Positions 30,694 to 41,496 of a DNA stretch of 64,000 nucleotides are shown piece after piece. Made by a program: the position numbers and the translations under genes. Below the pieces are notes generated by a model. It did no database searches. It saw nothing but the letters and a program-made list of their open reading frames with translations, and had not been told where the DNA came from. The DNA comes from Alphaproteobacteria bacterium UBA828 (GTDB taxonomy: Bacteria > Pseudomonadota > Alphaproteobacteria > UBA828): assembly GCA_002296185.1 (NCBI GenBank), contig DBHM01000027.1, positions 158,867 through 222,866 of the forward strand. Direction: 5' to 3'. Each line of letters begins with the position of its first letter. Within the stretch, counting starts at the first letter, position 1.

Positions 30694-32238
30694 ATGTCAG
30701 AACGAATTTTAATTTTAGATTTTGGCTCACAAGTAACTCAACTGATTGCTCGTCGTGTGCGTGAATCAGGTGTGTATTGTGAAATGAGACCTTACACAAT
30801 GCAAGATAAAGAGATTAAAAAGTTTTCTCCATGTGCAATAATTTTATCAGGCGGGCCTTCATCAATTACTAATTCAAAAGCTCCAAGACCTTCCAAAATG
30901 GTTTTTGAATGCGGTGTACCTGTTTTAGGAATTTGTTATGGGCAGCAAGTTATGTGCGAAACTCTTGGAGGAAAGGTAGAGTCGTCTAGCTCCCGAGAAT
31001 TTGGTAGAGCTGATATGGAAATACTAGAAACATGCGAATTATTTGAGGGAATATGGAGTGTTGCCTCCACTCAAACTGTGTGGATGAGCCACGGAGATCG
31101 TGTGATAGACCTACCTGAGGGGTTTAGGGTTGTCGCTGCTTCCAAAGGTGCTCCTATGGCTGCGATAGCTGACGATACCCATAAATTTTACGGTGTTCAG
31201 TTTCATCCTGAGGTTGTCCATACTCCAAGTGGTGGAGCGCTAATTAAGAACTTCGTTCAAAGAGTAGCCAAGTGTGATGGATCCTGGACTATGTCAGCAT
31301 TCAAGAAGCGGGCTATTAAAGCAATAAGAGATCAGGTGGGATCAGGTAGAGTCGTGTGTGGGTTGTCTGGGGGAGTCGATTCAAGTGTTGTTGCTGCTTT
31401 ATTACATCAAGCTATAGGCGATCGGCTAACATGTGTCTTCGTAGACTCTGGGCTTCTTAGGCTTGGAGAAGCAGATGAAGTAGTCAATATTTTCAAGAAG
31501 GAACTTAATGTCCATCTGTTACATAAGAATGCTTCTCTTGAATTCCTATCTGCTTTAGCGGGGGTATCAGACCCTGAGGAAAAGCGTAAGATTATTGGAT
31601 CGACATTCATTGATGTTTTTGAGCGCGCGGCCCTTGAAATTGGAGGAGCAGATTTTCTGGCCCAAGGAACATTATATCCCGATGTTATAGAGAGTGTTTC
31701 TGTTTCTGGTCCAAGTGCAGTAATTAAATCTCATCATAATGTAGGCGGATTACCGGAGAGGATGAATTTACAACTTGTCGAACCTGTTAGAGAGCTTTTT
31801 AAAGATGAGGTACGTGAATTAGGACGTGAGCTTAATCTTCCAGAATCATTGATTGGACGTCATCCATTCCCAGGTCCAGGTCTTGCAATCAGGATACCTG
31901 GGGAGGTAACGGAAGGTAAAGCTAATTTATTAAGAAAAGCAGATGCTATTTTTATTGATGAAATTCGTTCCGCAGGTTTGTACGATATTATTTGGCAGGC
32001 TTTTACTGTATTATTACCAGTTCGTACTGTAGGTGTTATGGGAGATGCTCGCACTTATGATAATGTATGTGCACTTAGAGCTGTCACTTCAACAGATGGA
32101 ATGACAGCTGACTTTTACCATTTTGACATGGATTTTCTCGGGAAAGTTTCTAATAGAATTGTAAATGAGGTGCCTGGTATTAATAGAGTAGTTTATGATG
32201 TAACTAGCAAGCCACCAGGTACCATTGAGTGGGAATGA
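30694..32238 (+). CDS. guaA: GMP synthase (glutamine-hydrolysing)
   Basis: GATase domain (ILILDFGSQ...GICYG), ATP-PPase SGGVDSSV motif, and a conserved C-terminal dimerisation domain. Confidence 0.9.
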
Positions 32239-32266: not shown

Positions 32267-33721
32267 ATGAGTAAGGTAATCAAGGGTGGAACAATTGTTA
32301 CAGCTGATAGAATCTATATGGCTGATGTGCTGGTTGAAAAGGATATCATCGCTGATATTGGCACCGGGCTTTCGGGAGATGAAACACTTGATGCCAGCGG
32401 TTGCTATGTAATGCCGGGTGGTATTGACCCACATACACATCTCGATATGCCGTTCATGGGAACCTACACCTCAGATAATTTTGAGTCCGGTACTAGGGCA
32501 GCACTATCTGGCGGTACCACAATGGTAGTGGATTTCTGTCTACCGGCACCTGGGCACTCACTTCTGGAGGCAATTCAGGCCTGGGACAATAAATCTTCTC
32601 TGGCGACAACTGACTACTCTTTCCATATGGCAATCACTTGGTGGGGCGAGGAGGTGTTCAATGAAATGTCAGCTGTTGTAGATAAGGGTATTAATACCTT
32701 TAAACACTTCATGGCCTATAAGGGCGCGCTGATGGTAGATGACGATGAAATGTATGCATCATTCCAGCGTTGTGCAGAATTAGGAGCAATGCCACTAGTT
32801 CATGCCGAAAATGGAGATGTCGTTGCACAGTTGCAGGCAAAGTTGATGGCTGAGGGGAATAATGGTCCCGAGGCGCATGCCTATTCTCGCCCGCCCGAGG
32901 TCGAAGGCGAGGCAACCAACAGAGCTATCATGATTGCCGATATGGCTGGCGTTCCGCTTTATGTTGTGCATGTTTCCTGTGAGCAGGCGCATGAGGCCAT
33001 CCGACGGGCGCGGCAGAAGGGTATGCGGGTCTATGGTGAACCGCTGATCCAGCATTTGCTGCTTGATGAGGGCGAATATGCCAATGATGATTGGGATCAT
33101 GCTGCGCGCCGCGTGATGTCACCGCCTTTCCGAAATCAACAGCATCAGGACAGCCTTTGGGCCGGTTTACAGGCAGGCAGCCTGCAGGTCGTTGCCACTG
33201 ATCATTGTGCTTTCACAACTGAGCAGAAGCGCTATGGTGTTGACGATTTCACCAAGATTCCGAATGGTACAGGTGGCCTTGAAGACCGTTTGCCGCTGCT
33301 TTGGACGCATGGAGTGAATACTGGCCGCCTTACGATGAATGAATTTGTTGCTACTACATCGACCAATATTGCCAAGGCGCTGAATATGTATCCACGCAAG
33401 GGTGCTATTCTTGAGGGTGCAGACGCAGATATTATCGTTTGGGATCCTAAGCGCGAAAAGACAATCAGTGTCGATAGCCAGCAATCAGCCATTGATTACA
33501 ATGTATTTGAGGGATTTAAAGTCAAGGGTCTGCCGCGTTTCACTATGACCAGGGGCTATGTCGCAATCAGTGAGAACGAGATCATGACGCGAGAGGGTCA
33601 TGGAAAGTTCGTTTCGCGTGAACCTTTCGGCGCAACCAACAAGGCGCTTTCGCAGTGGAAGGCATTGACAGCACCTCGAAAGGTGATCCGTGATCCAGCG
33701 AAGATGCCAGCTGGTGTATAA
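32267..33721 (+). CDS. hydA: Dihydropyrimidinase / D-hydantoinase (cyclic amidohydrolase)
   Basis: 484 aa with a metal-binding GGIDPHTH motif and long collinear similarity to D-hydantoinases (SRPPEVEGEATNRAI...VVHVSCEQA). GC content rises to about 57% through the gene. Confidence 0.85.
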   Translation: MSKVIKGGTIVTADRIYMADVLVEKDIIADIGTGLSGDETLDASGCYVMPGGIDPHTHLDMPFMGTYTSDNFESGTRAALSGGTTMVVDFCLPAPGHSLLEAIQAWDNKSSLATTDYSFHMAITWWGEEVFNEMSAVVDKGINTFKHFMAYKGALMVDDDEMYASFQRCAELGAMPLVHAENGDVVAQLQAKLMAEGNNGPEAHAYSRPPEVEGEATNRAIMIADMAGVPLYVVHVSCEQAHEAIRRARQKGMRVYGEPLIQHLLLDEGEYANDDWDHAARRVMSPPFRNQQHQDSLWAGLQAGSLQVVATDHCAFTTEQKRYGVDDFTKIPNGTGGLEDRLPLLWTHGVNTGRLTMNEFVATTSTNIAKALNMYPRKGAILEGADADIIVWDPKREKTISVDSQQSAIDYNVFEGFKVKGLPRFTMTRGYVAISENEIMTREGHGKFVSREPFGATNKALSQWKALTAPRKVIRDPAKMPAGV

Positions 33722-33857
33722 CTAGCATGCGAACAACGATTAAGGTGGAGTTAATTAAATATATTAAAAACAATAACTAGTTGCTAGTTTCAAAAATGAT
33801 TTCTAGAAGCTTACTTAGATTTCGGGTTTGAAGTGAAATTCTTGGGGAGTATTAGTC

Positions 33858-35726
33858 TTGCGAAATTTTAGAACAGTTCTTTTCGACAAAAATCCTGGGC
33901 GGAATGCACAGACGGTCGGCATTGCGCGAGAACTGGGCACCGATATTGAACTCATTCACGAGCCATCGGTTGGTGTCGTGGGCAACAAAGGCGATTCTCA
34001 GTGTTATCTCGGCGTACAGCGCAAGGTTGAAGCAATTCACGATTGTCTGCGTAGCAGTATTGGACAGAGTGATGGGCAGATGCGCGTCCGTTTGGTGCAA
34101 CCAGAATATTCCGTCGCAACCTCTGATGGTATGCGAAACGGTACGCGCGAGATGCGCTATTCGCTAATCGGCCGTGAAGTCACCAACGATACGATAACGG
34201 AACATCTCAGTGCTAGCGGACTTGAGGGTACCGTTGCCGTAGTCGCTTGTGACAAGCCACCTGTTGGAACACTGGCTGCCCTACTGGAGCATGACCGACC
34301 GTCGATAATTATGTCGGACGGACCGATCCGCCCGGGCCTAGACTCCGTCACTAAAGAGCGGATCGACATTATAACCGGATTCCAAGTCGCCGGGAGCTCC
34401 GATGAGGAGATGAAGAAGCGCGTCGCTTGCGAAGCGTGCCCAGGCTATGGCAGCTGCGGAGGCATGTTTACGTATAACACAATGCAAACCTTCATTGCAG
34501 TTGTCGGTATGGAGCCACTGCACATGGTTTCGCCGCCCTCGGACGACCCACGGCGTATCGAACATTATCCAAGCGAGTTGATATCTTACTTAGATAGGCT
34601 TATAGCCAATGACCTTTCGCCACGTAAGATTGTCAATCGCGATTCCATTCGCAATGCGATGATTGTGGCCATGGCGATTGGTGGCTCAACTAATGTTCTA
34701 CTGCATGGTCCAGAGATTGCTCGTGCCGCAGGATTTAGCAGCTTTACGAAAGACATCATGTCGCCGGAGGAGTTCAATCACCTCTCTCAATACGTAGTGC
34801 CAGTGCTGATCAATGCGCGGCCATTTGGGCAATATTCTATGGTCGACATTGATGATAAGGGTGGTATTCAAGTTATCGTCAAGGAGCTACTAGAGGCAGG
34901 ATTACTAAACGGTGACGTCATGACTTGTACAGGAGAAACCTTGATTGAACAGGTAGCGCGCCTTGATCCTCCGGCGCCAGACGGTGAGGTCATTTACTCG
35001 GTTGAGAAGCCCTTCAAGCCTACGGGGGGCCTTCGCGTGCTCGGTGGAAATTTATCACCTGAGTTTAGTGCTGTCTTAAAACTTGCTGGCGTTGAGGGGG
35101 GGCTAGAAAACAACGTCTTCAATGGCAAGGCACGGGTCTTCAATAGTGAAGTCGAACTGCTTGATACACTGGAGAACCAATCGGAAGTCTTCAAAAACAA
35201 CGACATGATCATTGTCCGCTACGAAGGCCCAAGTGGGGCACCAGGTATGCCAGAAATGCTCGACTCTACCTCGCGTATCACTACCTTATGCCGAGAGCAA
35301 GGGATCGTTGTGGGCTTAATGACCGACGCGCGTTTCTCCGGTGGTTCCGTCGGTCTCGTGATCGGTCATGTTGGTCCGGAAGCGGCTCTCGGGGGTCCAA
35401 TTGCCTATATAGAAGACGGCGACGACATTGTCGTTGACTTAAATAGGAACGAAATAAACTGCCTACAGCTAGGCAATGAATCGATATTATCCGCTCGTAA
35501 GGCAAGCTGGGATAAGGCTGTCGCGGATAATGGCGACATGCATCCGGCAATTGGTGATGTAGATACACGCTTGTTACATAGGATGCGGCGTTCGGCTGTC
35601 TCGGCTGTATTTGGCGCTGGCATGCATCCCGACCGAGAGCTCTGGGTCCACGCTGCACGCAAGCCAGAGATAACTGGATTCGTACCATCAAACAAGTACC
35701 GGGAAGGCTCTGCGAAAGCGTTCTAG
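33858..35726 (+). CDS. IlvD/EDD-family dehydratase (dihydroxy-acid or sugar-acid dehydratase)
   Basis: CDK motif (VVACDKPPVG), Fe-S motif CEACPGYGSCGGMFT, and TDARFSGGSVGLVIGHVGPEAALGGPIA. It has a TTG start, no obvious RBS, and high GC (about 55%). Confidence 0.75.
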   Translation: MRNFRTVLFDKNPGRNAQTVGIARELGTDIELIHEPSVGVVGNKGDSQCYLGVQRKVEAIHDCLRSSIGQSDGQMRVRLVQPEYSVATSDGMRNGTREMRYSLIGREVTNDTITEHLSASGLEGTVAVVACDKPPVGTLAALLEHDRPSIIMSDGPIRPGLDSVTKERIDIITGFQVAGSSDEEMKKRVACEACPGYGSCGGMFTYNTMQTFIAVVGMEPLHMVSPPSDDPRRIEHYPSELISYLDRLIANDLSPRKIVNRDSIRNAMIVAMAIGGSTNVLLHGPEIARAAGFSSFTKDIMSPEEFNHLSQYVVPVLINARPFGQYSMVDIDDKGGIQVIVKELLEAGLLNGDVMTCTGETLIEQVARLDPPAPDGEVIYSVEKPFKPTGGLRVLGGNLSPEFSAVLKLAGVEGGLENNVFNGKARVFNSEVELLDTLENQSEVFKNNDMIIVRYEGPSGAPGMPEMLDSTSRITTLCREQGIVVGLMTDARFSGGSVGLVIGHVGPEAALGGPIAYIEDGDDIVVDLNRNEINCLQLGNESILSARKASWDKAVADNGDMHPAIGDVDTRLLHRMRRSAVSAVFGAGMHPDRELWVHAARKPEITGFVPSNKYREGSAKAF

Positions 35727-35891
35727 GTGAGCCCAGAGCGATTTAGTAGGAATAGATTTTAGAGTGTCATAACCTGGTCTGGCGGGTTTGGTCCTGGTGC
35801 TTGATACAATTGTGGAAAGAATCCGGCAACTACGCCTTTTTCTTTACTAGTCTTGAATACATAAGCGACTTTCATAGAAATCTCGAAAAAA

Positions 35892-35914
35892 ATTACTATT
35901 TAATGAATAGTAAT
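35892..35914. promoter_or_regulatory. 23-bp perfect palindrome ATTACTATT-TAATG-AATAGTAAT upstream of the small membrane protein and photolyase-related genes; candidate operator
   Basis: Inverted repeat read directly from the sequence, about 35 bp upstream of the first ATG of the 35947 ORF. Confidence 0.3.
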
Positions 35915-35946
35915 ACTTTGAGTCTTATCCATTGGCTTAATAATAA

Positions 35947-36462
35947 TTGTATATGAAAGCTATTATATTTTTTTTATTTAACATAATACAGATAGGTAAA
36001 AATATAGAATTCATGATGTTCTCAATCTTTGCTCAAATTAATAATATTTTTAAACATAAAAATACTTGGAAGGTCGCCTCTAAGAATACTTTATGGTGTC
36101 TTTTAGGTTGCTCTATAGGGGATCTTGGTACAATAGCTTTTTTTCAGTTTATGGAAATTGATTGGCCAGTCTTTTCAATAATGGTTCTAGCTATTGTTAA
36201 TGGTTTGATTACGTCAATTCTTTTGGAAACTCTTATCCTTACAAGGCAGATGAATCTTAAAAACTCTTTTAGAACTGCAGTTGGAATGTCATTCATTTCA
36301 ATGATTGCAATGGAAATTGCCATGAATATTACAGATTTAATTTTCACGGGTGGTGCAGTTTTAAATTGGTGGGTAGTCCCATTAATGTTGATAGCGGGTT
36401 TTCTTACCGCAGTACCCTACAATTACTGGCGTCTTAAAGCTTTTGGAAAATCATGTCATTAA
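35947..36462 (+). CDS. Small integral membrane protein (4-5 TM) with a conserved-looking WCLLGCSIGDLG motif
   Basis: 171-aa hydrophobic ORF in a very AT-rich island. The start may be the downstream MMFSIF. Function unknown. Confidence 0.45.
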   Translation: MYMKAIIFFLFNIIQIGKNIEFMMFSIFAQINNIFKHKNTWKVASKNTLWCLLGCSIGDLGTIAFFQFMEIDWPVFSIMVLAIVNGLITSILLETLILTRQMNLKNSFRTAVGMSFISMIAMEIAMNITDLIFTGGAVLNWWVVPLMLIAGFLTAVPYNYWRLKAFGKSCH

Positions 36463-36564
36463 ATTAATAATGAATTTGAAATCGTATATTATATGGATAC
36501 ATATAGTTATAAATATACATAAGATTAATTTTGAAAAAATTGTATAATTTTAATTAAGAATAAC

Positions 36565-38076
36565 ATGACAAATAATTTTTTTGTAATTTTAGGAAATCAA
36601 CTATTTGATCCCAAAATTTTAAAGTCCAAAGGTTGTGGGCATGTTTTTATGGCAGAAGATTTTGGTCTATGTAAATATGTAAAGCATCATAAGCTAAAAA
36701 TCTATTTGTTCTTATGTTCAATGAGAGAATATAGAGATGAATTAAAGAGGTATGGTTTCAAAGTATCTTATTTTTCTCTTGAAGATAGAACTGATAACCT
36801 CAATTACCCAAAATTTTTAATAGATTTTGTAGAAAAAAATAATATATCTAAGATCAATTTCTTTGAAATAGAAGACCATTTCTTTGAAAAAGAAATCTTT
36901 GATCAAATGAAGAAGAAAGGCCTAAAATTACAACTCCATAAATCGCCAATGTTTATGTTTTCACGTAATGAATTTATTTCACTTCACGAAGGGAAAAAAA
37001 ACTTTAGACTTTCTAATTTTTATAAAATAGGTAGAAAAAAATTTAATATACTTATGAATGAAAATTGCGAACCAATTGGAAAAAAGTGGTCATTTGATCA
37101 TGAAAATAGAAAAAAAATACCCAAAAATGTTTCAATCCCAAAACTTCAGCCTCCCAGTCGAACTAAGTACCACAATCAGGTTATTCAATTAATAGAGCAG
37201 CATTTTAGCGATCATCATGGCAGATTAGATAATATATGGTTTCCTGTAGAGCGGGGAGGTGTTGACAGGCATCTTGAATTTTTTCTGGCTCACAAGCTTA
37301 TATATTTTGGGGTATATGAGGACGCAATACGGCATGAAGAAAATTTTTTATTTCATAGCTGTATTAGTCCATTTCTAAATATCGGGTTAATTACACCAGA
37401 CTCATTATTAGAGAGAGTGTTGGAGTTATTTAATAAGGGGTATGCCCCGATTAACTCCATCGAAGGATTTGTGAGGCAAGTATTAGGGTGGCGTGAGTTT
37501 ATACGTGGAATATACCAAATGAAGGGCTCAGAACAGCAGCAAAGCAATTTCTGGGCGCATAAACGTTATTTAAGTGAAAGTTGGTATAATGGTTCGACCG
37601 GGATTGTACCTTTGGATGATTCTATTCAATCGGCAATAAAAGATGGATATAATCATCACATACCTAGGCTTATGGTAATCGCTAATTTGATGAATTTGAG
37701 CGAGATCGATCCAAGGAATATTTATAAATGGTTCATGGAAATGTATATTGATTCGTCAGACTGGGTAATGATACCCAATGTATTTGGAATGGCAACGTTT
37801 GCTGATGGGGGTCTGATATCAACTAAGCCATATTCATGCAGTTCAAATTATATACTTAAAATGAGTAATTATAAAAAGGGAAACTGGTGTAAAGTAGTCG
37901 ATGGATTGTACTGGCGTTTTATTGATAAGCATCAAAAATTTTATAAGTCTAATCCCCGTCTTTCGTTTCAAGTAAAAATGCTAGAAAGAATAGATATTGA
38001 AAGAAAAAAAGAAATTTTCCAATGTGCAGAAATTTTTTTGACTAAAAACACATATTATTCTTCAGAGTTTCTTTAA
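36565..38076 (+). CDS. Cryptochrome/photolyase-family protein, COG3046 (PhrB/CryB-like, deoxyribodipyrimidine photolyase-related)
   Basis: N-terminal VILGNQLF motif and a C-terminal FAD-binding region (HHIPRLMVIANLM...DWVMIPNVFGMATFADGGLISTKPY...NYILKMSNY), matching COG3046 proteins of about 500 aa. Confidence 0.65.
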   Translation: MTNNFFVILGNQLFDPKILKSKGCGHVFMAEDFGLCKYVKHHKLKIYLFLCSMREYRDELKRYGFKVSYFSLEDRTDNLNYPKFLIDFVEKNNISKINFFEIEDHFFEKEIFDQMKKKGLKLQLHKSPMFMFSRNEFISLHEGKKNFRLSNFYKIGRKKFNILMNENCEPIGKKWSFDHENRKKIPKNVSIPKLQPPSRTKYHNQVIQLIEQHFSDHHGRLDNIWFPVERGGVDRHLEFFLAHKLIYFGVYEDAIRHEENFLFHSCISPFLNIGLITPDSLLERVLELFNKGYAPINSIEGFVRQVLGWREFIRGIYQMKGSEQQQSNFWAHKRYLSESWYNGSTGIVPLDDSIQSAIKDGYNHHIPRLMVIANLMNLSEIDPRNIYKWFMEMYIDSSDWVMIPNVFGMATFADGGLISTKPYSCSSNYILKMSNYKKGNWCKVVDGLYWRFIDKHQKFYKSNPRLSFQVKMLERIDIERKKEIFQCAEIFLTKNTYYSSEFL

Positions 38077-38238
38077 ATTTTTTACTGGATATTTTTGGAT
38101 TTTTCATGAAGAAGAAGTGGTTTTTATAAGATATTAATTTAAGTCTATTATCACTATAGAATGTAATGGTTGTGTGTGGTTGAAATAAAATTATGAGACG
38201 GCTAGGGTGTAAGAAGTATTCCTTGAAGGATTAAATCA

Positions 38239-39651
38239 ATGTCAGTGCTACTTGATCAAAACAAAAACTATAATGCACAATTTGGACCAATCTTTAGATC
38301 ATCAGCAATTTTTTATATTCCTCGTGATGTTAAGACGACTATAACTGTTTCCAATTACTGGGATTTTAAAAACAATTTAGAAGTAGGGCTATTATTTTCA
38401 ATACGTAAACTTAGTGGAGAATTAGTTGAGAGACGAGAGCTATACTTTAATGATGGATTAGTTATTAATGAGAGTAAATGGCCTATCGAAGAGGGTTCTG
38501 TCGAGGTGGAGGCATTCGGTAATAAAAACCTTCGTATACCTTATGCGGCTGTCATGGGAGTATATGAAACAGAAGCTTCGATTACTATGGTTCACTCTTA
38601 TGGGAGAAACCACAACTTAATAGAAATAGAAGATCGGAGTTCCTTAACCTCTGGACGCGAGAGCTGTTGGACTATTCGTCAAGATAATGATGTTGAGAAT
38701 AAAGCGGTTTTTCATAATGGTCATCTAGGTGTACCTAATCAAATAGCAAAATTTACGTTAACAAATGTTGAGGGAGCGGAGCATTCTACAGATTTCAGTA
38801 TGCCCCTTTTAGAACCGTTTGAAACATTTGTTTTTAACTTGTCTGAAATAGTTCCACAATATAAGGATTTTCTTAGCGGCTCAGACGGTTGGGGGACATT
38901 ACATTTTGAAAATAAAACTGCCTTCACGCGACTACTTTTAGTTTGGCAAAATAAATTAACAGGGGAGTTACAAGTAACTCATTCAAATTTTGATTATTCT
39001 GAGATTGAGACTAATAAGATAGAGGCAACTAAGCCAGCAATTATGAAATGGCCTTCAATATTAACTCAATCAGATTCTGGGCAAGTCGTGCTATATCCAA
39101 AATTTTCCAAAGGTATATATAAAATAACTTCAAATAAAAGTATAACTGAAACTGATAAAGGTTTGTTCATTAAAACTAAGGATATTGATGCTCTTGAATT
39201 TACGTCCTTAGATAAAAACACAATACCTTCACGAATAGTAACTGGAATCACTTATCAAAAAGAAAAAAATACTTTACCATTAGAGTGTTCCATGGGAATT
39301 GTTCACGAAAAAAGACCGCCAAAAAGATTTCACTGGGCTGTTGTCTCAAAAAAGTTCAAGTCACGTCTATTCTTCAATGCCTTTACAGAAATATATCAGG
39401 TCCCTGATGACTTGTTTATCGTATTTAGACTTTATACGGCAAAGAGAAATCAATATGTGGAAAAACGTTTGGATATTCAATCTCTGAATGAAATCCCAGA
39501 TGGTATTTATATAGATGAATTATTTGCCAATATAGATCAATCAGGTCATGAGGATTATTGTTATGTTTCAATGTTCTCAAACTTTGGTGGATTGCTAATG
39601 TATTCTTCTATGCAAAAAAAATCTTCTATGACTATAGAGCATTCATTTTAG
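38239..39651 (+). CDS. Hypothetical protein (470 aa, orphan, predicted beta-rich and soluble)
   Basis: Long uninterrupted ORF with a good RBS (AAGGATT) and host-island-like codon usage. It has no recognisable motifs, no TM segments and no signal peptide. Confidence 0.5.
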   Translation: MSVLLDQNKNYNAQFGPIFRSSAIFYIPRDVKTTITVSNYWDFKNNLEVGLLFSIRKLSGELVERRELYFNDGLVINESKWPIEEGSVEVEAFGNKNLRIPYAAVMGVYETEASITMVHSYGRNHNLIEIEDRSSLTSGRESCWTIRQDNDVENKAVFHNGHLGVPNQIAKFTLTNVEGAEHSTDFSMPLLEPFETFVFNLSEIVPQYKDFLSGSDGWGTLHFENKTAFTRLLLVWQNKLTGELQVTHSNFDYSEIETNKIEATKPAIMKWPSILTQSDSGQVVLYPKFSKGIYKITSNKSITETDKGLFIKTKDIDALEFTSLDKNTIPSRIVTGITYQKEKNTLPLECSMGIVHEKRPPKRFHWAVVSKKFKSRLFFNAFTEIYQVPDDLFIVFRLYTAKRNQYVEKRLDIQSLNEIPDGIYIDELFANIDQSGHEDYCYVSMFSNFGGLLMYSSMQKKSSMTIEHSF

Positions 39652-39683
39652 TCTATTACTTCTTAAGTAAGAATTTTTTCAAT

Positions 39684-40349
39684 TTAGCGATAGATTCCAT
39701 CCCACTCAGTTTTTGAAACCTCTACATTTCCGTCGTCATCAACTGTAGGTCGTTGTAGTACAAAAGTTGTTTCAGGTGTAATTACTCCATAATCCATATA
39801 GCCCATTCGAGCTAAAGGACGCATCTCTGATGTATTTACAATACCATCTTTGATAAATTTATCATTTATATAGACCCCAACTACTTGACCTATAGTCATA
39901 AAATGGCCTTTGTCACCTTGATCAACTACATCTGGTAATTCTATAGTTTTCCAGTGTTTGCACTCTAGAGCGGCTGGAGATCGAGAAACGCGGGGTGGCT
40001 TCACAAATTGTGACTCTGTTGTTTCAAGATTTGCAAGAGAGAATTCATTTGCTAAATAGTCAACAGGTGCTGAGCTAATATTCATACCTTCACGGGTATC
40101 CCACGTAGATAAAGAACACGTAAATTCGCCATTATCTTCAATATTGCGCAGACTGTCTTTTCGGTCTACAGAAGTAAACATCACATAATTTGGATCCGCA
40201 CCTACTGCATTGAAAAAACTATAAGGTGCAAGGTTTAATATGCCGTCGTTAGAAATAGTTGAAATCCAACCAATGGGTCTTGGTGCAACTAAGGCTTTGA
40301 AGGGGTCATGCTTTAAGCCGTGGTTATTCTCTATACTATCATAGTGCAT
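39684..40349 (-). CDS. Flavin reductase-family protein (FMN-binding split barrel)
   Basis: 221 aa with the flavin-reductase-like domain pattern (LAPYSFFNAVGADPNYVMFTS). Confidence 0.7.
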   Translation of the reverse strand: MHYDSIENNHGLKHDPFKALVAPRPIGWISTISNDGILNLAPYSFFNAVGADPNYVMFTSVDRKDSLRNIEDNGEFTCSLSTWDTREGMNISSAPVDYLANEFSLANLETTESQFVKPPRVSRSPAALECKHWKTIELPDVVDQGDKGHFMTIGQVVGVYINDKFIKDGIVNTSEMRPLARMGYMDYGVITPETTFVLQRPTVDDDGNVEVSKTEWDGIYR

Positions 40350-40443
40350 GATATTATTCCTAAAATACGATTAATAAGTTAAATTATTTTATTAGGCAAT
40401 GACTCGAGTAACTTATCTATAATAATACTTAATTCTGCAATAT

Positions 40444-41496
40444 TTAGTTATGGTGCGTTTCCTCAAACCCTCCAAGAATAGCTATAAGATTGTCACCTAG
40501 AATATCTGATATATACCCTCCTTCTTGTATCATAAGAGTAGGTAGTTTAATTCTTCCTATAGCCTGGCCAATTCTATAAAAGCCATCTGTTGTAATACTC
40601 ATAAAAGCAAGTGGATCACTTTCTGATATATCTAGACCAAGCGCTATAATTAATATTTCAGGTTTAAAAGTTATAATCTCATCTATCGCGAAATTTAATG
40701 TGTCTAGATATGATTGATCAGCTGTATTCTTTTCAAGTGGCAAGTTAATGTTATAGCCCTTTCCCATGGCTAAGCCTGCCTCATCTGAGTATCCAGAAAA
40801 AAATGGATAGTAGTCAGATGGATCACCATGAAGTGAAACAGTTAAAACATCAGACCGGTTGTAAAATATACCTTGAGTACCATTTCCATGGTGTACATCA
40901 ATATCCAATATAGCTATTTTTTTTGCCCCATTTTCAATAAAACATTGCCCGGCTATAGCGGTATTATTAAAAAAACAAAACCCTCCTGCTTGATCTGAGA
41001 AAGCGTGGTGACCTGGAGGTCTGCAAAGAGAATAAGCAAAGGTATTTTTTTTGCTATTTTTAGCATCATCGATTAAAGCAAGTGCTCCAGATACGGCAAC
41101 ATTAGCTGATAATATGGCCCCATCATATGTCCCTTTTCCTATCGGGCATGCAGTATCTGCTTGATAATATCCAGCGAGCCCTATGAGTGATTTTGGTAAT
41201 AAACTCATATTTCGACCTGGGTGTATATTGGGAATAACTTCATTACTGCTATCTGGAAGATTTTGCCACAGACTCCATGAATTTTTAAGGAAATTTATAT
41301 AGCCCTTATCATGTATTGCTTCTATAGGTTTTGTGCCATGATCCTGAGACTCTATTAAATTGTGTCCAGCTGCTCTTGCTGATGCTTCTAAGATTTCCGC
41401 TCGTTTTGGTTGTTCAGGATTATTTTTTAGTTGACCTCTAGAAATAAAGGTTTGTGGTGAATGGATAGTATGATTAGGGGAATAAAACACTCGCAT
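40444..41496 (-). CDS. Histone deacetylase-family amidohydrolase (AcuC / acetylpolyamine amidohydrolase-like)
   Basis: HDAC signatures: PGHHA..GGFCFFNN, DIDVHHGNGTQ, and the Zn ligands D-H-D. Confidence 0.8.
   Translation of the reverse strand: MRVFYSPNHTIHSPQTFISRGQLKNNPEQPKRAEILEASARAAGHNLIESQDHGTKPIEAIHDKGYINFLKNSWSLWQNLPDSSNEVIPNIHPGRNMSLLPKSLIGLAGYYQADTACPIGKGTYDGAILSANVAVSGALALIDDAKNSKKNTFAYSLCRPPGHHAFSDQAGGFCFFNNTAIAGQCFIENGAKKIAILDIDVHHGNGTQGIFYNRSDVLTVSLHGDPSDYYPFFSGYSDEAGLAMGKGYNINLPLEKNTADQSYLDTLNFAIDEIITFKPEILIIALGLDISESDPLAFMSITTDGFYRIGQAIGRIKLPTLMIQEGGYISDILGDNLIAILGGFEETHHN

Follow-up and report, generated by a model that had tools for sequence, protein, structure and literature searches.

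A stretch of 64,000 nucleotides from Alphaproteobacteria bacterium UBA828 (contig DBHM01000027.1; hereafter the window) shows an abrupt fall in guanine-plus-cytosine (GC) content some distance behind guaA, and three co-oriented genes lie in the dip. They encode a small integral membrane protein of the DUF4396 family, a (6-4) photolyase-type flavoprotein, and a 470-residue protein that we call ORF470. An earlier note, made from the sequence alone, had described the three as a very low-GC island that might be an undescribed light-linked or DNA-damage-linked module, or equally a set of independent cargo genes at an insertion hotspot. The question raised by this locus is thus whether the genes belong together, by function or by origin. 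In our analysis they are very probably three functionally independent accessory genes standing side by side in a variable slot; three unrelated genes of this marine alphaproteobacterium would share the space between guaA and a convergent flavin-reductase gene.

Genes of a conserved module should be neighbours in independent lineages, and this was not observed for any pair of the three. We assembled 83 loci carrying photolyase relatives (44-70% identical, 668 kb in total) and searched them by tblastn with the three proteins, and none held a DUF4396 or an ORF470 gene. Likewise, no photolyase of the DPRP family and no DUF4396 gene was found in the 30 loci that carry ORF470 besides the window (26 loci from GTDB genomes, the rest from metagenomes), within 8-10 kb where the contig extends that far, and the three DUF4396 contexts contained no photolyase. 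The earlier note had named the genes never being neighbours elsewhere as one part of its refuting condition, and in these 83, 30 and 3 contexts they never were; the synteny comparison found no two of the three genes paired in any other locus examined. The trio is unique to the genome lineage of the window. Identical sequence was present in TARA Oceans contigs of up to ~0.6 Mb, and the arrangement was the same in all 24 contigs read.

Base composition was examined over the interval 35727-39683, with the 51 other genes of the window as core reference. GC was 0.320 in the interval and 0.390 in the whole window. The drop that had been placed near 35.75 kb is indeed abrupt, from ~0.50 at 35.0-35.8 kb to 0.26-0.33 at 35.8-37.2 kb, with 0.28-0.39 up to 39.6 kb, but the return to core values proposed at 39.68 kb could not be upheld, since GC of 0.32-0.39 persists to about 42.8 kb and the change is gradual. 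The DUF4396, photolyase and ORF470 genes have GC of 0.314, 0.317 and 0.340, compared to 0.395 +/- 0.030 for core genes (n=51; z = -2.7, -2.6 and -1.8). In comparison, their GC at third codon positions (GC3) was 0.285, 0.282 and 0.255 against a core value of 0.278 +/- 0.037 (z = +0.2, +0.1 and -0.6), and the likelihood of their synonymous codons under a core-gene model equals or beats that of core genes (z = +1.0, +2.2 and +1.5). The low GC arises only at the first and second codon positions (GC1 and GC2), because the proteins are rich in Lys, Asn, Ile, Phe, Tyr and Met; the fraction of these six residues (FYMINK) is 0.39, 0.41 and 0.34, versus 0.275 +/- 0.04 in core proteins. Thus, the dip is genuine but due to amino-acid composition, and because GC3 and synonymous codon use are host-like it carries no foreign-DNA signature. 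Of the very low-GC island, the low GC remains and the island does not, given host-like synonymous sites and the lack of mobility signatures. AT-rich leaders do precede each of the three open reading frames (ORFs), with lengths of 220, 102 and 162 bp and GC of 0.36, 0.14 and 0.28.

The adjoining high-GC block, a pair of genes at 32267-35726, was also confirmed at GC 0.50-0.52, and it behaves differently. Its GC3 values are 0.485 and 0.525 (z = 5.6 and 6.7) and its codon log-likelihoods deviate from the core model with z = -3.5 and -5.7, so that this pair is the sole compositionally foreign segment of the region. On the other side, the flavin reductase-like gene has GC and GC3 at core values and falls outside the trio. 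The positions of all these features are collected in the table below.

Features of the slot between guaA and the flavin reductase-like gene, in window coordinates
Feature	Position	Strand	Evidence
guaA (GMP synthase), left anchor of the slot	30694..32238	+	ORF; Pfam GATase/GMP_synt_C
High-GC pair: dihydropyrimidinase/D-hydantoinase and IlvD/Edd-family dehydratase	32267..35726	+	TIGR02033 E 2e-179 (hydantoinase)
Non-coding leader 5′ of the DUF4396 gene, including 66 bp of its longest ORF	35727..36012		sequence read
Longest ORF of the DUF4396 gene, 171 aa	35947-36462	+	ORF list
DUF4396 (PF14342) integral membrane protein, ~148 aa	36013..36462	+	Pfam E 7.6e-37
Spacer, 102 bp, GC 0.137	36463..36564		composition
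(6-4) photolyase-type flavoprotein (DPRP/COG3046, FeS-BCP clade), putatively of the subgroup without [4Fe-4S]	36565..38076	+	Pfam DPRP E 4.7e-59
Spacer, 162 bp, GC 0.278	38077..38238		composition
ORF470, predicted cytoplasmic all-beta protein, four beta-sandwich domains, TM1070/ASRT-like fold	38239..39651	+	
Flavin reductase-like gene, right flank, convergent with ORF470	39684..40349	-	Pfam Flavin_Reduct E 6.6e-17
GcrA gene	45.6 kb		

The ORF list agrees with the three co-oriented ORFs that had been reported, although the start of the first one is likely to lie further downstream, as discussed below. The high-GC pair begins 28 bp past the guaA stop codon, and its IlvD/Edd-family dehydratase scored under every ilvD model cut-off. 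A histone-deacetylase-family gene (acetylpolyamine amidohydrolase-like) is also convergent downstream of ORF470, within 39684-41496. An Rfam scan of the whole window matched a tRNA alone, with nothing in the interval or the DUF4396 leader. Promoter and terminator scans gave the same counts as shuffled sequence, and promoter-like matches in the DUF4396 leader were at chance level.

The 3′ end of guaA is a documented attachment (att) site of integrase-borne islands of the GIsul2 type (PMC9376610). The core 8-mer of GIsul2, GAGTGGGA, is present at 32227-32234 in the 3′ end of guaA. A second copy lies at 39700-39707, inverted, in the 3′ coding sequence of the flavin-reductase gene, 17 bp inside the right edge of the interval, and the stretch between the copies holds precisely the five genes that separate guaA from flavin reductase. 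Three occurrences of the 8-mer were counted in the window where 1.07 would be expected, and three were reached in 7 of 100 shuffles; given its inverted orientation and the lack of an integrase, the copy at 39700 is probably due to chance. The guaA 3′ end has no further copy in direct orientation, the ORFs at the interval included no integrase or transposase, flanking repeats were at chance level, and the single tRNA of the window is located at 27.1 kb. An 18-nt direct repeat (16/18 matches) brackets ORF470, with one copy at 38133-38150, ~90 bp before the start codon, and the other at 39641-39658, over the stop codon; by our estimate, 4 kb of the same composition would yield about one pair of this kind by chance. 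The interval thus shares with GIsul2-type islands the place behind guaA and the GAGTGGGA core, but differs from them in having neither integrase, direct att duplication nor mobility genes. In synonymous-site composition, mobility genes, repeats and tRNA the trio shows none of the marks of a genomic island, and deviant composition is seen just in 32267-35726. Neither DUF4396 nor ORF470 gave any tblastn match against 72,556 plasmids.

Comparison with relatives gives some indication of how the slot was filled. Six further loci of alpha- and gammaproteobacteria (L009, L010, L012, L017, L024 and L040), or 7 with the window, have ORF470 shortly behind guaA and co-oriented with it. The gap between the two genes is 49 bp in L009, 160 bp in L040 and 512 bp in Stappia sediminis BGMRC 2046, while one to five small genes separate them in Granulosicoccus, a Porticoccaceae metagenome-assembled genome and L017. 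The order in L009 is guaB-guaA-ORF470-...-AhpC-TPR_21-BamB-Der, compared to guaB-guaA-(hydantoinase, dehydratase, DUF4396, photolyase)-ORF470-...-GcrA-TPR_21-BamB in the window. The content 3′ of guaA varies among relatives, in line with the earlier suggestion that the genes are independent cargo at a hotspot in this position. Between L040 and the window, guaA is 43% and ORF470 68% identical, and therefore ORF470 seems to have moved horizontally yet reached the same slot. The gene tree of ORF470 is incongruent with taxonomy, and its guaA-linked copies interleave with copies linked to genes for nonulosonic acids (NulO); judged from these sequences, ORF470 appears to spread horizontally. Candidate explanations for its recurrent landing behind guaA are a targeting mechanism, a link to guanine nucleotides, or a hotspot. 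Because the guaA-ORF470 arrangement recurs in relatives, we consider it the older one; most simply, both the high-GC pair and the DUF4396-photolyase pair would have been inserted between the two genes later. The high-GC pair would then be recent, and the DUF4396-photolyase pair would be either old or derived from a donor of similar codon use.

The third of the proteins, ORF470, had been called an orphan with no detectable domain. No Pfam or NCBIfam domain was in fact detected, but the protein is not an orphan, since its relatives number 382 at 90% clustering, with 591 representatives at 50% clustering. Nearly all complete sequences among the matches listed are 465-530 aa long and match the whole profile in a single stretch, and carriers include Alpha-, Beta- and Gammaproteobacteria, SAR11, Planctomycetes, Bacteroidetes, Oligoflexales and Silvanigrella. 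Two of the carriers, Brevundimonas basaltis DSM 25335 and Stappia sediminis, can be cultured. Across 38 sequences of 40-71% identity, 62 columns are invariant, with His, Glu, Cys, Asp or Arg in a large number of them. Neither a signal peptide nor a membrane segment is present.

Elsewhere, ORF470 is strongly linked to NulO operons. Of the 30 other loci, 14 have it within NulO clusters of the legionaminic-acid type. These clusters contain a CTP_transf_3 cytidylyltransferase, a NeuB-type synthase, an aminotransferase whose best match is LegC-like, a PseB-like dehydratase and a PtmE-type CBS-nucleotidyltransferase, and their NeuC_NnaA-type epimerase and NeuD-family acetyltransferase exceed the NCBIfam cut-off. 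WbuX genes (over cut-off) and HisH/HisF-like amidotransferase genes are frequent as well, for example in L004, L007, L029 and L127, which suggests acetamidino-modified legionaminic-type sugars. Read against the legionaminic acid pathway, the gene set would be that of a legionaminic-acid-type pathway with acetamidino modification. In 8 of the NulO-cluster loci the cytidylyltransferase gene is the direct neighbour of ORF470, and in the two Comamonadaceae loci (L028 and L029) ORF470 is placed between the cytidylyltransferase gene, at a gap of ~20 bp, and neuB, with no gap. A formyltransferase gene (2 loci) or a TylF-type O-methyltransferase gene (3 loci) adjoins ORF470 in some cases, and a relative 69% identical to the protein of the window belongs to a NulO cluster with EpsG, GT2 and an initiating transferase. 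In the Fuerstiella locus (L004), the ORF470 gene is flanked by an MBOAT gene and a sulfotransferase gene. A tblastn search with the proteins of such clusters, from the NeuB-type synthase and NeuC-type hydrolysing epimerase to the LegC-type aminotransferase, 4,6-dehydratase, N-acetyltransferase and CMP-NulO synthetase, found no NulO gene in the window, so that this copy sits away from the NulO home context. A literature search for a NulO-cluster gene described without a function and matching ORF470 returned nothing specific.

Structural modelling predicts four domains in ORF470, at about residues 1-132, 133-256, 257-362 and 363-470, all beta-sandwiches. The best fold match is TM1070/ASRT (Anabaena sensory rhodopsin transducer), with the eight-stranded beta-sandwich of TM1070 topology in the model. 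Domains 2 and 4 are related to each other by profile comparison (E 8e-5), as the sole pair reaching significance. Searches by sequence were negative in comparison: ORF470, whole or in four pieces, matched nothing in Pfam, NCBIfam, PADLOC or PHROGs at E <= 10, a PDB sequence search with the family profile returned noise alone, and Foldseek of the whole chain against the PDB gave generic multi-Ig arrays with query TM-scores of 0.08-0.15. Comparison of each domain with the ASRT and TM1070 pair by hhalign gave E values of 0.2-0.7, which are not significant, and the strand-2 signature SHEshChhN of the ASRT-like family is missing from the ORF470 alignment. A likeness of motifs seen by eye (GRESCW with GRTCW, THSNFD with QHTRLD) was considered as a sign of homology to ASRT/TM1070 and dropped after the hhalign result. 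Since no homology by sequence or profile is significant, we claim a resemblance in fold and not membership of the ASRAH superfamily. That superfamily, which comprises TM1070 and ASRT, is predicted to bind sugars or small molecules as tetramers, with other families occurring as dyads or tetrads per chain (PMC2739507). ORF470 would share the fold of ASRT (2II7) and TM1070 (1NC7), but it differs in having four domains in one 470-aa chain and its own set of invariant His, Glu and Cys residues, and the context of NulO biosynthesis is undescribed for ASRAH proteins (De Souza, Iyer and Aravind 2009, PMC2739507). Fold model and context taken together, ORF470 most likely binds NulO, CMP-NulO or a related sugar nucleotide, and it would do so as an accessory enzyme or a sensor. 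We put forward only tentatively, as a possibility falling somewhat short of even, that it is an undescribed family with a four-domain array dedicated to NulO pathways, where it would bind or modify NulO or CMP-NulO, be it as sensor, chaperone or new enzyme, and that it spreads horizontally and repeatedly settles behind guaA.

For the middle gene, the earlier assignment to COG3046 photolyases was correct. The protein has both a DPRP N-terminal domain (PF04244, E 4.7e-59) and a domain binding flavin adenine dinucleotide (FAD; PF03441, E 9e-6), and it is alignable over its full length to known members of the clade, with PhrB of Agrobacterium (4dja) covering residues 6-492 at E 1.4e-83 and CryB (3zxs) matching at E 1.3e-77. 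The V. cholerae 6-4 photolyase (7YKN) and other solved prokaryotic 6-4 photolyases match as well. The catalytic His-His pair (H365/H366 in PhrB) corresponds to H364/H365, and the Mg2+-binding Asp residues (D179 and D254 in PhrB) to D178 and D253; all four are invariant in 12 marine clade members. In PhrB, the two Asp residues mediate stimulation by Mg2+ (bioRxiv 10.1101/366252). In comparison, the iron-sulfur (FeS) ligands are lost: PhrB C350 is replaced by Pro, C438 and C441 fall in a 10-residue deletion, and one Cys alone (C442) sits within one residue of PhrB C454. The photolyase of the window thus does not carry the set C350, C438, C441 and C454 that marks cluster-bearing FeS-BCP proteins, and because of this loss we assign it to the FeS-free subgroup of the PromaPL type. 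By strong homology and conserved catalytic residues, gene 2 would be a prokaryotic (6-4) photolyase and a new member of this known subgroup. The subgroup is reported to make up ~30% of the clade; PromaPL of Prochlorococcus, which represents it, carries out Mg2+-dependent repair of (6-4) lesions (bioRxiv 10.1101/366252; PMC9178010). The protein of the window shows the same loss of FeS ligands as the Prochlorococcus marinus subgroup and keeps the His-His pair and the Mg2+-binding Asp residues, whereas PhrB, CryB and the V. cholerae enzyme are FeS-bearing relatives. In the mechanism that we infer, photoexcited FADH- would give an electron to the (6-4) lesion, in a protein that could bind no iron-sulfur cluster. 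A cryptochrome-like regulatory role, as for CryB, is a possible alternative on the same sequence evidence.

Compared to PhrB, the marine clade (~497 aa) keeps two invariant Cys residues, C425 and C442. C425, in the motif YTC(G/S)SNY, is novel relative to PhrB, while C442 lies within a residue of PhrB C454. The two might make a disulfide or another structural stand-in for the lost cluster. The photolyase of the window also has a C-terminal extension of 6 residues relative to most clade members. Marine metagenomes contain close relatives (58-71% identical, ~497 aa) in extremely large numbers, and this abundance of the FeS-free clade, with thousands of relatives, fits the published idea that iron was shed in iron-poor oceans. 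Across the 83 loci, an SDR gene recurs as neighbour in 22, a second photolyase in 17, a DCC1-like thiol oxidoreductase in 16 and PsiE in 10. Marine light/UV clusters centred on photolyases of the same clade contain SDR, second photolyase and DCC1-like/DUF393 genes, but these partners are absent in and near the interval. In L042 (8607-9281), a close photolyase relative lies ~2 kb from a bacterial rhodopsin gene. In L044 (6855-11494), another is directly upstream of genes for a DHQ-synthase-like protein, an O-methyltransferase, an unannotated 462-aa ORF and an ATP-grasp protein, which together look like a mycosporine-like sunscreen cluster. Such light-related neighbourhoods are missing from the window.

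The first gene encodes a small inner-membrane-type protein with four helices, as judged by hydropathy. PF14342, a family without assigned function, matches it over its whole length (127 bits against a cut-off of 27), and >7900 relatives were found, nearly all of 148 aa. The coordinates previously given for its ORF are correct, but the start codon is probably the ATG at 36013 or 36016 and not 35947, giving 148-149 aa, because residues 1-23 of the 171-aa ORF are missing in >80% of 60 aligned homologues. In the numbering of the 171-aa ORF, the invariant residues include E94, E123 and D130, the motif C51-x3-C55-x3-D59 within the first hydrophobic segment, and C170-H171 at the C-terminal end. Three distinct, independent loci provide the neighbourhoods of DUF4396 elsewhere. 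There it is divergent from a MerR-family regulator with a metal-type DNA-binding domain, adjoins CopB, multicopper oxidase and cupredoxin genes, and has a DUF411 gene ~5 kb away. In the one paper found to mention DUF4396, the gene borders a heavy-metal resistance cluster (PMC7760498). The invariant Cys motifs and the MerR and copper neighbours hint that DUF4396 may be a candidate for binding or transport of a thiophilic metal.

How do these results bear on other explanations of the locus? A single light-linked or DNA-damage-linked module made up of all three genes would agree with their adjacency and common orientation, with the photolyase-family flavoprotein in the middle, and with the best fold match of ORF470, which includes the Anabaena sensory rhodopsin transducer. 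It is nevertheless highly improbable in view of zero co-occurrence in the 83, 30 and 3 independent contexts; moreover, the conserved partners differ, being NulO-sugar genes for ORF470 and metal genes for DUF4396, and the recurrent partners of the photolyase clade itself are absent here. The far less likely variant in which an ASRT-like ORF470 was recruited as signal transducer for the adjacent cryptochrome/photolyase-family flavoprotein is barely credible. A single island that had recently come from a low-GC donor into the guaA hotspot, extending over 35.7-39.7 kb, would account for the GC of 0.32 against 0.39, for the place behind a known att site (PMC9376610) and for the incongruent phylogeny of ORF470. 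We regard this as unlikely, as the trio cannot be told from the core by GC3 or synonymous codon use, integrase and tRNA are lacking, no flanking direct repeats exceed chance, the arrangement is identical in every contig read, and DUF4396 and ORF470 have no plasmid match. In addition, ORF470 is found beside guaA in relatives without DUF4396 or the photolyase, and the three genes therefore have different histories.

It is also conceivable, though doubtful, that ORF470 is tied to guaA and purine-nucleotide metabolism and not to NulO, with the linkage to guaA reflecting an operon and not a hotspot. The same-strand position downstream of guaA in 7 loci, with the short gaps of L009 and L040, the transfer of a gene that reached the same place in L040 despite the diverged guaA, and the Ppnp nucleoside phosphorylase gene adjacent in L040 and L017 would all fit such a tie. 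Against it, NulO clusters hold twice as many loci (14), some with ORF470 inside the operon, guaA-linked and NulO-linked copies interleave in the tree, and in the window four unrelated genes stand between guaA and ORF470. Independent accessory genes thus remain our preferred explanation, and several points weigh against it or against parts of it. The trio is co-oriented with short spacers that contain no terminator-like site, so that read-through transcription is possible. The richness of the proteins in FYMINK residues could date from an ancient ancestry in lineages of lower GC. A close relative that shares the backbone but has an empty slot was not found, and the order of insertion is drawn from distant relatives; a guaA strain variant (P0363) had an unchanged downstream arrangement and hence yielded no empty-site allele. 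The functions proposed for ORF470 and DUF4396 are derived from context and fold, with a profile test against ASRT/TM1070 that was not significant and, for DUF4396, with context at just 3 distinct loci.

As a unit, the trio is of little importance, being a chance juxtaposition, and the case shows that a GC dip driven by amino-acid composition can mimic a genomic island. The main residual interest of the locus lies in ORF470, a protein that is widespread across several phyla, confidently modelled and unannotated. It is found in NulO operons of SAR11, Comamonadaceae, Planctomycetes and others, and knowing what it binds or catalyses would close a gap in our understanding of how bacteria make sialic-acid-like surface sugars.

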